Shown here piece after piece: positions 1 through 492 of a stretch of DNA of 492 bases. The notes beneath the pieces were generated by a model, which had not been told where the DNA came from, ran no database searches, and saw nothing but the letters and a program-made list of their open reading frames with translations. This stretch comes from a phage. Positions within the stretch are counted from its first letter, which is position 1. Every line of letters begins with the position of its first letter. The stretch lies in sequence record PZ136914.1; one strand, given 5' to 3'. The position numbers were made by a program, and so were the translations under genes.

Positions 1-492
1 ATGCGATTCAGTGACAACGGTCTGAGATTCACGGCAGCCTGGGAGGCTTTCAGCCCGGTGCCGTATTTCGCGACCAAGAAAGAGCAGGCCCGCGGCCTGT
101 ACACCTGGGGTTATGGTCATACTGGCACTAACCCGCCTCGAAGCATTACCCGTGCGGAAGCGCTGGAACTGCTCAAGCGAGATGTGGCGTATGCCGAGGA
201 CTGGGTGAACAAATACGCACATCCGAGCATTAACCAGGCGCAATTCGACGCGCTGGTGGACCTGGTAATCAATGCCGGTCAAGGTCCGATCGTACCGGAT
301 AACATCGCGAATGATTTCGATGATGCGGTGCGACTGGGCGACTGGGCGAAGGTCCGTGCTACTCTGCCGCAGTTCCGCAAGCAAGGCGGGGAAGTGCTTA
401 AGGGTCTGGTACGCCGTGCAATCGGCAGACAGGCGTTGTTTGATGGTAAGCAGTGGGACGTTGCCGAGAAGATCGGGCGTAACGCTGCATAA
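1..492 (+). CDS. Phage-type lysozyme / endolysin (glycoside hydrolase family 24, T4/P22-lysozyme-like muramidase), soluble form without signal or SAR anchor
   Basis: Complete ORF, ATG 1-3 to TAA 490-492, 163 aa. Family motifs read from the translation: Glu15 in 'AAWEAF' (nt 43-45) as putative catalytic acid; 'GLYTWGYGHTG' (aa 32-42, nt 94-126) matching the GxGHTG-type motif with conserved Thr35; 'NQAQFDALVDLVIN' (aa 78-91) matching the conserved NQxQ[FY]DAL helix; C-terminal 'GGEVLKGLVRRAIGRQALF' (aa 129-147) matching the G-x-x-L-x-G-L-x-x-RR...ALF motif. Size is typical for single-domain endolysins. No hydrophobic N-terminal stretch. No database search was possible. Confidence 0.9.
   Translation: MRFSDNGLRFTAAWEAFSPVPYFATKKEQARGLYTWGYGHTGTNPPRSITRAEALELLKRDVAYAEDWVNKYAHPSINQAQFDALVDLVINAGQGPIVPDNIANDFDDAVRLGDWAKVRATLPQFRKQGGEVLKGLVRRAIGRQALFDGKQWDVAEKIGRNAA
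330..349. repeat. Perfect tandem duplication of the 8-mer gcgactgg (about 2.5 copies: gcgactgg gcgactgg gcga) inside the lysozyme CDS
   Basis: Read directly from nt 330-349; it encodes 'RLGDWA' (aa 111-116). The unit length is not a multiple of 3, so a copy-number change would shift the frame. Confidence 0.6.

Follow-up and report, generated by a model that had tools for sequence, protein, structure and literature searches.

The missing catalytic Asp of a coliphage endolysin

T4-type endolysins are still defined in reviews and structure papers by the rule Glu-X8-Asp/Cys-X5-Thr. The window, the 492-nucleotide stretch of phage DNA analysed here, encodes a protein that departs from this rule, with Ala24 nine residues after the catalytic Glu (position +9) and the Thr at +20. 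This raises the question of what, if anything, takes over from the missing Asp. The lack of Asp is already known as a property of the subfamily rather than a defect: the 2014 paper on Lys68, the endolysin of Salmonella phage phi68 (Jerseyvirus; Oliveira et al. 2014, PMC4188523), already described an Asp-free stretch from its Glu to its Thr. The sole mechanistic proposal that we found for Asp-less members invokes a single catalytic Glu and does not put to the test the invariant Glu that lies four residues after the Asp position. To this we add the covariation of positions +9 and +13 over 146 loops, which bears on the migration of catalytic residues. The question is relevant to active-site annotation and to the engineering of Lys68/EC340-type enzymes, which are developed as antibacterials against Gram-negative bacteria.

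The window is an endolysin gene of the Lys68/EC340 type

The window is an ordinary endolysin gene of Dhillonvirus-type E. coli siphophages, a common phage group. In the ORF listing it forms one ATG-to-TAA frame on the plus strand (Table 1); the remaining small ORFs are short overlaps in other frames without support. A nucleotide search with the window found 153 near-identical phage records annotated as lysozyme or endolysin. The 'lysozyme' of Escherichia phage PC2 shares 98.2% of its nucleotides, and the highest protein identity among annotated phage endolysins is 99.4%, to that of phage NHEP3. Profile searches matched the protein to PF00959 Phage_lysozyme over residues 14-139 (76.1 bits against a gathering cutoff of 22.3) and to PHROG 7 endolysin (E=2.4e-35). 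Glu-X8-Asp/Cys-X5-Thr is a literature motif rule and not a criterion of family assignment; the PF00959 assignment still holds. The AF2 model (pLDDT 97.4, pTM 0.91) displays the two-lobed T4-lysozyme fold, and Foldseek matched it with probability 1.00 to 8hp8, AbLys1, AcLys, P21 R, P22 and T4 lysozyme (T4L), at TM values of 0.56-0.91.

Judged by its sequence, the protein is a full-length, T4-type member of the Lys68/EC340 subfamily, which is large and has been studied before. The closest solved structure is EC340/mtEC340M of E. coli phage PBEC131 (PDB 8HP8), which matches residues 3-161 in sequence (E=1.3e-31) and superimposes on the AF2 model with a TM of 0.91 and an rmsd of 1.6 Å at 46% identity. 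EC340 shares the Ala(+9)/Glu(+13) arrangement ('AYRATPNEKYLTIGYG') and is active in a zymogram (PMC8886149), whereas 8HP8 differs from the window protein in having the short-loop form and in being an engineered variant; a review that cites 8HP8 says nothing on its active site. Lys68 is about 47-50% identical to the window protein. Like it, Lys68 is a single domain (~162 amino acids) that has a Y-x-A-T-x-x-E...T-x-G-Y-G-H motif and shares the C-terminal extension; unlike it, Lys68 has a short loop with Thr at +17, lacks A30-R31-G32 and carries Glu31 as the equivalent of Glu28. The wksl3 endolysin, more than 90% homologous to Lys68 (PMC4188523), shares 46.9% identity with the window protein at 98% coverage. 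Literature searches returned nothing specific on Dhillonvirus endolysins or on the phi29 gp15 mechanism, and a text search with hairpin motif strings of this type gave no match. Other candidates proved irrelevant: LysJEP8 is an M15 peptidase, Pantoea phage PA1-Lys (217 amino acids) belongs to another family, KBNP1315 ORF51 encodes a SAR endolysin with an SLT domain, LysO78 is a GH19 enzyme, and the GH184 paper touches on Asp20 only in passing.

The gene sits in a lysis cassette of the order holin-holin-endolysin, with two holin genes upstream and a 14-nt overlap. In SSL-2009a, to which nucleotides 1-23 of the window are identical, a class-I-like holin CDS stops 14 nt inside the endolysin CDS and its translation ends in KHAIQ*. 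This gene is the sole endolysin of the cassette, in a phage group of which more than 150 isolates have been sequenced. The protein does not have the weakly hydrophobic N-terminal transmembrane segment that precedes the catalytic Glu in SAR endolysins; its N-terminus, MRFSDNGLRFTAAW, forms part of helix 1 in the AF2 model, and the catalytic Glu is residue 15. It thereby differs from P1 Lyz, a SAR endolysin regulated by disulfide isomerisation, in having neither the membrane segment nor a hairpin Cys. The endolysin would build up in the cytoplasm until the two holins encoded just upstream let it through to the cell wall, where it would cut glycan strands and lyse the cell.

Table 1. Features of the window, in nucleotide positions of the 492-nucleotide stretch
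Feature	Position	Strand	Basis or remark
Complete endolysin gene, 163 aa plus stop	1..492	+	GH24 / PF00959, Lys68/EC340-type subfamily
Overlap with 3' end of upstream holin gene (...A-I-Q-stop, TGA at 12-14, other frame)	1..14	+	Comparison with SSL-2009a
Glu15, catalytic general acid (= T4L Glu11, AcLys Glu64, Lys68 Glu18)	43..45	+	118/118; alignment; Lys68 mutant
Tyr22, hairpin tyrosine (= T4L Tyr18)	64..66	+	117/118; both loop types, 82/83 and 48/48
Ala24 on canonical catalytic Asp/Cys column, +9 from catalytic Glu	70..72	+	117/118 Ala; AcLys Asp73 alignment
K26-R31, hairpin-tip segment, predicted short helix	76..93	+	HMMER gap; DSSP helix 26-31 in AF2 model
Glu28 (+13), invariant second carboxylate, candidate relocated general base	82..84	+	117/118 Glu; covariation
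A30-R31-G32, three-residue indel	88..96	+	Present in 71/118, absent in 47/118
T35-W-G-Y-G-H40, GH24 beta-hairpin signature	103..120	+	Family conservation; kept in both loop types
Family-specific C-terminal extension D148-A163, predicted helix 152-160	442..489	+	Past Pfam match end (residue 139)

Alanine stands on the Asp column of a lengthened hairpin

The active-site region runs from the GAG codon of Glu15 (nucleotides 43-45) to the last nucleotide of codon 42 (126) and thus covers E15-G42, 'EAFSPVPYFATKKEQARGLYTWGYGHTG'. Direct reading bears out what the earlier note had pointed to: Thr35 follows Glu15 at a distance of 20 residues, and the segment between the two (residues 16-34) is free of Asp, with Glu28 as its sole acidic residue. 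By itself this is unremarkable, since 19 residues lack Asp by chance in roughly one case in three at typical Asp frequency; it is homology, not chance, that makes the absence meaningful. In HMMER profile alignments to solved canonical GH24 enzymes, Ala24 falls on the catalytic Asp column. There, 'SFEGTRFNAYDDG-----VGVWTIGTG' of 6et6 (AcLys) aligns to 'awEkfrakpyfatkkEkarglytwGyG', which pairs Ala24 with AcLys Asp73, the equivalent of T4 lysozyme Asp20, and places Glu28 inside a five-residue insertion (residues 26-30). In a 60%-identical enzyme of the Cys type, Ala24 pairs with the Cys. On these alignments, Glu15 occupies the general-acid column, the canonical Asp/Cys column is an invariant Ala, Glu28 is likewise invariant, and the Thr35-bearing hairpin is five residues longer than in canonical enzymes.

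Among 118 homologs, E15 and T35 are kept in all 118 and Y22, A24, T25 and E28 in 117 each, so that the subfamily's hairpin motif Y-x-A-T-x-x-E reads Y22-F-A24-T25-K-K-E28 in the window protein. The hairpin signature is kept as well (G37 in 117, G39 in 118 and H40 in 110); Thr35 corresponds to T4L Thr26, and in the alignment His40 pairs with the last residue of the T4L GIGH motif. In the AF2 model Glu15 lies shortly after helix 5-13. The indel A30-R31-G32 splits the long-loop form (the window protein, Thr at +20) from the short-loop form (Lys68, EC340 and the phi29 type, Thr at +17). The description of the loop as basic fits these homologs in part: position 29 is mostly K/R, but positions 26 and 27 are variable (A/P/K/S and A/K/D/E, respectively).

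Canonical GH24 enzymes (T4 E, P22 gp19, P21 R, AcLys and LysF1) share the Pfam family and fold of the window protein, as well as the catalytic Glu, the hairpin Tyr, Thr-x-Gly-x-Gly-His, D61, N91 and the RR motif. They differ in the hairpin, where their Glu-X8-Asp-X5-Thr contrasts with Ala at +9, Thr at +20 and a sole loop carboxylate at +13. The catalytic triad of AcLys is Glu64/Asp73/Thr79, and according to a 2021 statement every published structure of the family contains Glu-X8-Asp-X5-Thr (PMC8228626). That +9 need not be Asp is illustrated by P1 Lyz and further Cys(+9) endolysins (E-X8-C-X5-T), and some Ala/Glu-type enzymes have their closest relatives among the Cys-type enzymes, at 60% identity. 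We also considered a conserved Asp from elsewhere in the protein. The columns of D61, D83 and D87 are equally conserved in Asp-type enzymes and are therefore not compensations. In the profile these columns correspond to D63, D85 and the adjoining Asp. D61 and H40 of the window protein presumably resemble the Asp70-His31 pair of T4L.

Acidic residues at +9 and +13 are almost perfectly exclusive

We classified 146 loop segments from representatives of 50%-identity clusters, a sample biased toward the query; the broader GH24 pool comprises 8,785 representatives at E<=1e-10. Sixty-five carry A(+9)/E(+13), 18 carry P(+9) with E or D at +13, and five combine C(+9) with E(+13); D(+9) occurs in 37, none of them acidic at +13, and C(+9) alone in 11. 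An acidic +13 and an Asp at +9 are thus almost perfectly exclusive: position +13 is acidic in 0/37 Asp(+9) loops against 83/93 loops in which +9 is neither Asp nor Cys, counts that are not phylogenetically independent. The spacing from +9 to +13 is fixed, whereas the offset of the Thr varies (+16, +17, +20). About 10 of these 93 clusters have no acidic +13, and most of them are register shifts; one ('EQFRPVAYPISGQWTIGYGH') has a loop without any acidic residue, which counts against relocation.

All columns that differ between the loop types lie within the hairpin, and the column comparison revealed no distal co-varying column. The two types meet in a 60%-identical pair ('AYKCASG--VWTIGYGH' of the Cys type and 'AYKATPQEQYYTIGYGH' of the Ala/Glu type), whose alignment again sets Ala on the canonical column and Glu in the insertion. 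On a neighbour-joining (NJ) tree with the hairpin loop masked, which is noisy with its roughly 135 divergent columns, the types are intermingled: the minimum number of changes is 17, compared with 38 when the labels are shuffled, and some mutual nearest neighbours are of opposite type. The N-terminal domain of Bacillus phage Nf gp15 (phi29 family) carries the Ala(+9)/Glu(+13)/Thr(+17) hairpin of the Lys68/EC340 type ('AYKAVPTEKYYTIGYGH') at 31.5% identity to the window protein. Aligned to canonical enzymes, the phi29-type domain again shows Ala on the Asp column and Glu in the insertion. Nf gp15 differs from the window protein in its Gram-positive host and in extra C-terminal sequence past the lysozyme domain, and overall its similarity to Asp-type Acinetobacter enzymes (E=9e-39) exceeds that to 8hp8 (E=3e-19).

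Glu28 as a candidate relocated carboxylate

The explanation that we favour, with moderate confidence, is that the window encodes a soluble, holin-dependent GH24 endolysin, a peptidoglycan glycosidase whose second carboxylate has moved from +9 to +13, where Glu28 provides it. The second catalytic carboxylate would be kept with its position in the hairpin shifted: Glu28, on a short turn of helix at the tip of the hairpin, would reach back with its longer side chain over the small Ala24, and its carboxylate would take the space of an Asp(+9) carboxylate. Once Glu15 had protonated the glycosidic oxygen, a water molecule would attack MurNAc at C1, with Glu28 as its general base or electrostatic partner. 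Of the three possibilities that the earlier note had raised, a substitution of Asp by Glu28 is the best supported, by its invariance, by the +9/+13 exclusivity and by the fixed spacing, but it falls short of proof; a search of the accessible literature, which did not extend to the 8HP8 structure paper, found no mutant of the +13 Glu. A point against relocation is that D20A is said to retain activity in T4L and P22 (bioRxiv 10.1101/418723), so that such enzymes may not strictly need a second carboxylate.

That report also supports the scheme of the Lys68 authors, in which Glu15 would do all the chemistry, since besides the active D20A it describes P22 D20L as attenuated and not dead. In their scheme, acid catalysis is coupled to neighbouring-group participation of the N-acetyl group, which yields an oxazolinium intermediate; water is subsequently activated by the Glu in its deprotonated state. 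Glu28 would be kept for structure or substrate binding, for example by capping or stabilising the lengthened hairpin, a feasible role given its place within a predicted short helix in the AF2 model. The authors arrived at this proposal from the same data, the covariation excepted: Lys68 is active, Glu18Ala is inactive, Thr35Ala (T35A) is wild-type-like, and no second catalytic residue was found (PMC4188523). However, their mutants did not include Glu31, the residue in question, and because Glu31 was never mutated their conclusion does not reach it. The reference on which they rest a Glu-only GH24 subgroup really splits T4-type from lambda-type enzymes (PMC2976769), and we therefore set aside their 'two GH24 subgroups' as a description of the forms seen here. 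A structural role also leaves unexplained why +13 is never acidic in the Asp(+9) clusters, even in those with lengthened loops (Thr at +16, +18, +19 and +27), and why the P(+9)/D(+13)/T(+16) form, with a loop just one residue longer, has an Asp there; nor is there a partner residue outside the hairpin that co-varies. We regard the single-Glu scheme as rather unlikely.

We judge it improbable that the enzyme is instead a lytic transglycosylase, which would have no base for water and in which the C6-OH of MurNAc would attack C1 to give 1,6-anhydro-MurNAc, the chemistry of lambda R and Slt70. Within the lysozyme superfamily, lytic transglycosylases rely on one Glu, and the lambda type is tabulated without a general base (PMC2976769, Table 2). 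The activities of Lys68 and EC340 come from turbidity and zymogram assays, which are blind to the difference between hydrolase and transglycosylase, and we found no product analysis or stereochemistry for any Lys68/EC340-type member in the literature. Yet the window protein is of the T4/P22 type in sequence and fold, no lambda-type structure appears among the sequence and fold matches listed, and an invariant second carboxylate next to a retained Thr-x-Gly-x-Gly-His hairpin would be unexpected had the base function been dropped. Lambda R shares with the window protein its origin as a phage endolysin of the lysozyme superfamily and has a single catalytic Glu with no listed general base (PMC2976769), but it belongs to another sequence class, produces anhydro-muropeptides and lacks both the T-x-G-x-G-H hairpin and the +13 Glu.

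Least probable by far is that loss of the Asp has left a weakened lysozyme comparable to the domesticated SpmX domain. SpmX domains with D20L/R are attenuated (bioRxiv 10.1101/418723), and the window protein has a weak, sub-threshold similarity to NCBIfam SpmX (27 bits, where the cutoff is 700). In T4L and P22, however, activity is kept by D20C/A only, both substitutions being common in phage sequences, so that Ala belongs to the two tolerated residues and Leu and Arg do not (bioRxiv 10.1101/418723). Moreover, the lysis cassette of these lytic phages, which have been isolated many times, has no other endolysin, and the subfamily is strongly conserved. The earlier note's suggestion of altered or reduced activity therefore finds no support: the homologs Lys68 and EC340 are robustly active when purified, and, as far as activity goes, relatives with the same loop match the ordinary active muramidases in the first half of what the note had named as evidence against its proposal, the second half being a dispensable Glu28. 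The window enzyme is most likely a normal, active muramidase.

Returning to the relocated carboxylate, we give an even chance to a broader view, in which the second carboxylate of GH24 enzymes has two interchangeable sites in the hairpin, +9 (Asp/Cys) and +13 (Glu/Asp, with a lengthened loop), between which it has switched repeatedly; the forms with Cys(+9) and Glu(+13) are possible intermediates between the two types. If this is true, Glu28 is a real general base and the single-Glu mechanism of Lys68 is wrong, as is the rule that defines the family by Glu-X8-Asp/Cys-X5-Thr. The +13 form would then be a major form of the family (88 of 146 loops in a sample biased toward the query).

A conserved C-terminal extension

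Displayed profile alignments to canonical enzymes stop at about profile position 149. Within the extension that closes the window protein, residues G149, A155, E156, G159 and R160 vary little or not at all in the family alignment. Together they form part of an ALFDG..W..AE..GR motif (A145-L-F-D-G149 ... A155-E156 ... G159-R160) that aligns to 8hp8, in which the extension is also present.

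The catalytic aspartate column and its hairpin

Canonical GH24 enzymes of the T4 lysozyme (T4L) type follow a Glu-X8-Asp/Cys-X5-Thr layout (Glu11, Asp20 and Thr26 in T4L). Reading nucleotides 43-126 (E15-G42) directly, we find Glu15 and Thr35 20 residues apart, with no Asp between them and Glu28 as the sole acidic residue, as the earlier note had described. Chance alone can readily give a 19-residue stretch lacking Asp; what counts is the homologous column. We used a profile of 66 family members for HMMER alignment to solved canonical GH24 enzymes, AcLys (6et6) among them, and it is Ala24, not Asp, that falls on the canonical Asp column. 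In the AcLys alignment ('SFEGTRFNAYDDG-----VGVWTIGTG' opposite 'awEkfrakpyfatkkEkarglytwGyG' of the profile), the aligned residues, counted along the AcLys chain, are Glu64, Asp73 and Thr79, the same three that are listed as its catalytic triad (PMC8228626). Because of this agreement, Glu15 corresponds to Glu64 (T4L Glu11), Ala24 to Asp73 (T4L Asp20) and Thr35 to Thr79 (T4L Thr26), and the missing Asp is thereby confirmed. Residues 26-30, including Glu28, form an insertion relative to canonical GH24.

The Asp-less arrangement holds family-wide: E15, Y22, A24, T25, E28 and T35 are each kept in at least 117 of 118 aligned homologs. The description of the loop as basic stands only in part, since position 29 is mostly Lys or Arg but positions 26-27 vary freely and A30-R31-G32 is an indel. 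Loops with these three residues occur in Dhillonvirus, Pantoea and Klebsiella phages, and loops without them in Lys68 (Salmonella phage phi68), EC340 (phage PBEC131), Kagunavirus and phi29-type proteins. An acidic residue stands at +13 (counted from the catalytic Glu; Glu28 in the window) in both forms.

An AlphaFold2 model built with the family alignment is very confident (pLDDT 97.4, pTM 0.91). It places a helix at residues 5-13, strands at 18-22, 34-37 and 40-42, and a short helix at the hairpin tip (residues 26-31). The top Foldseek match is 8hp8, an engineered EC340 endolysin (TM 0.91, rmsd 1.6 Å, 46% identity), followed by canonical AbLys1, AcLys, P21 R, P22 and T4L (TM 0.56-0.76). According to a 2021 structure paper, every structure published for the family had Glu-X8-(Asp/Cys)-X5-Thr (PMC8228626); 8HP8 (2023) is the one Ala/Glu-type structure found among the structure matches.

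The C-terminal extension of the window protein also occurs in EC340/8hp8, and its G149, A155, E156, G159 and R160 are invariant or nearly so; the displayed profile alignments to canonical enzymes stop short of it. Related papers discuss membrane activity of C-terminal helices in Gram-negative endolysins, but strict conservation of the extension here would rather suggest a structural role.

Features of the window (nucleotide positions; residue numbers refer to the product)
Feature	Position	Strand	Basis or remark
Complete endolysin ORF, ATG to TAA, 163 codons	1-492	+	ORF reading and family matches
Overlap with 3' end of upstream second, class-I-like holin gene (...A-I-Q-stop, TGA), other frame	1-14		14 nt; SSL-2009a comparison
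A30-R31-G32 three-residue indel	88-96		present in 71, absent from 47 of 118 homologs
C-terminal extension, residues 148-163, past Pfam match end	442-489	+	predicted helix 152-160

Mutual exclusion of acidic residues at +9 and +13

A family-profile search of 1.84 billion cluster representatives returned 24,146 matches at E<=1e-3 (8,785 at E<=1e-10); the best 150 of the 24,146 yielded 146 classifiable loops.

Hairpin forms among the best 150 matches (offsets from the catalytic Glu)
Form	Loops of 146
A(+9)/E(+13)/T(+17)	40
D(+9)/T(+15)	27
A(+9)/E(+13)/T(+20), form of the window protein	25
P(+9)/E(+13)/T(+17)	14
C(+9)/T(+15)	11
D(+9)/T(+18)	5
C(+9)+E(+13)/T(+17)	5
P(+9)/D(+13)/T(+16)	4
Other forms, including 5 more D(+9) loops with Thr at +16, +19 or +27	15

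Within this best-150 sample, an acidic +13 residue is present in 0 of 37 clusters with Asp at +9 and in 83 of 93 whose +9 residue is neither Asp nor Cys; the ten exceptions are mostly register shifts from indels ahead of the Tyr. The acidic residue always lies four residues from +9, while the Thr follows it at a distance of 3, 4 or 7 residues. Such fixed spacing fits a putative local turn that would fold the longer side chain of Glu back across the small +9 residue.

Five 50%-identity clusters (P0195, P0225, P0227, P0229 and P0244) carry both Cys(+9) and Glu(+13), as in 'AYKCVPTEKYYTIGYGH', and may be evolutionary intermediates between the two layouts or have a Cys under redox control, like that of P1 Lyz. 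Others (P0264, P0266, P0247 and P0222) pair Pro(+9) with Asp, not Glu, at +13 in a loop one residue longer than canonical ('AYKPTPRDVWTIGYGH'), which shows that the longer insertion is not needed for a +13 carboxylate. The hairpin loop of P0186 ('EQFRPVAYPISGQWTIGYGH') contains no acidic residue or Cys; this representative would be a true single-carboxylate candidate.

The two loop types differ only in the hairpin columns and the residue after 'GYGH', other conserved positions being common to both. Among distal positions, only profile position 130 varies with loop type, and that moderately, so nothing points to a new salt-bridge partner. On a hairpin-masked neighbour-joining tree the types interleave, needing at least 17 changes where shuffled labels need 38 on average, although the tree is noisy and the counts are not independent events. 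Close pairs of opposite type are, by contrast, robust: P0219 (Cys type) shares 60% identity over 143 aa with P0159 (Ala/Glu type), with 'AYKCASG--VWTIGYGH' set opposite 'AYKATPQEQYYTIGYGH' by BLASTP. The phi29-type endolysin domain of Nf gp15 ('AYKAVPTEKYYTIGYGH') resembles Asp-type Acinetobacter enzymes more, overall, than it does 8hp8.

Activity and the second carboxylate

EC340 and Lys68 are the closest relatives with characterised enzymes. EC340 is active in a zymogram (PMC8886149). For Lys68, whose mutagenic primer codes 'NEKYL(T>A)IGYGH', Glu18Ala is inactive and Thr35Ala wild-type-like (Oliveira et al., PMC4188523). The wksl3 protein ('FEGFRGTAYKATKSEKYLTIGYGH'), near-identical to Lys68, shares 46.9% identity with the window protein. 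The view that the window encodes an ordinary, active GH24 muramidase is well supported, because about 775 phage records hold a relative in a protein search, the protein is the sole endolysin of the SSL-2009a cassette, and both homologs are active. The last two points lend no support to the altered or reduced activity that the earlier note had raised, and an attenuated enzyme is very unlikely; a shift to lytic transglycosylase chemistry we regard as improbable.

Glu15 would serve as the general acid, a role demonstrated for Lys68. For that enzyme, Oliveira et al. had already described in 2014 the lack of an Asp between its Glu and Thr; they proposed a single-Glu, substrate-assisted mechanism, and Glu31, the equivalent of Glu28, was not among the residues they mutated (PMC4188523). 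The reference behind their 'a GH24 subgroup with only Glu' separates T4-type from lambda-type enzymes (PMC2976769) and hence has no bearing on the Asp-less Lys68 type. Tolerance of D20A in T4L and P22 makes the single-Glu mechanism, in which Glu28 would be structural, a plausible one: activity was kept only in D20C and D20A, substitutions 'well represented' in phage sequences, and P22 D20L was attenuated, not dead (Randich et al., bioRxiv 10.1101/418723). A structural Glu28, however, does not account for the lack of an acidic +13 in every classified Asp(+9) loop, lengthened Asp-type loops included. Because Glu28 is invariant, acidic +13 and Asp(+9) exclude each other, the spacing is fixed and the switch is local, we lean slightly towards a second carboxylate relocated from +9 to +13, in which Glu28 would take the role of Asp20.

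The gene, its subfamily and the lack of the canonical Asp are all in databases and literature, and as stated the finding is therefore not new. Potentially novel are the systematic +9/+13 exclusivity and the interleaved loop types, which make the invariant Glu as missing base a one-mutation question.

Gene identity, lysis cassette and distribution

The product matches Pfam PF00959 (Phage_lysozyme; 76.1 bits, cutoff 22.3) and PHROG 7 (endolysin; E=2.4e-35), and its top protein match is the phage NHEP3 endolysin (99.4%). At the DNA level, the window matches 153 phage records at 80-99% identity, nearly all of them Dhillonvirus siphophages of E. coli or Shigella (e.g. SSL-2009a, EP23, YD-2008.s); the 'lysozyme' gene of Escherichia phage PC2 is 98.2% identical. 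In SSL-2009a the endolysin gene closes a holin-holin-endolysin cassette, and the window is identical to it across the holin overlap. Such short gene overlaps are typical of tightly coupled lysis cassettes. The N-terminus lacks a membrane segment, since the catalytic Glu comes as early as residue 15 and the model assigns residues 5-13 to helix 1, and the product is therefore a soluble, holin-dependent endolysin.

Directly 3' of the endolysin, SSL-2009a (3509-3910) has no annotated spanin, the next gene being annotated as an Ig-domain structural protein, unlike some relatives, such as Klebsiella phage EKq1, in which an Rz-like spanin adjoins the endolysin. At 88.6 kb, PQ843332.1 (Escherichia phage P-GXEC-L2P5) is roughly double the length of the other matching records, usually ~44 kb, and holds the endolysin region in two copies, one matched in three pieces; it looks like a concatenated or duplicated assembly. 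Sodalis phage SO-1 (GQ502199.1) has a near-identical endolysin (96.9% protein identity), and one record named as an Acinetobacter phage is also among the DNA matches, which suggests that Dhillonvirus-like phages were grown on other hosts or assigned to them.
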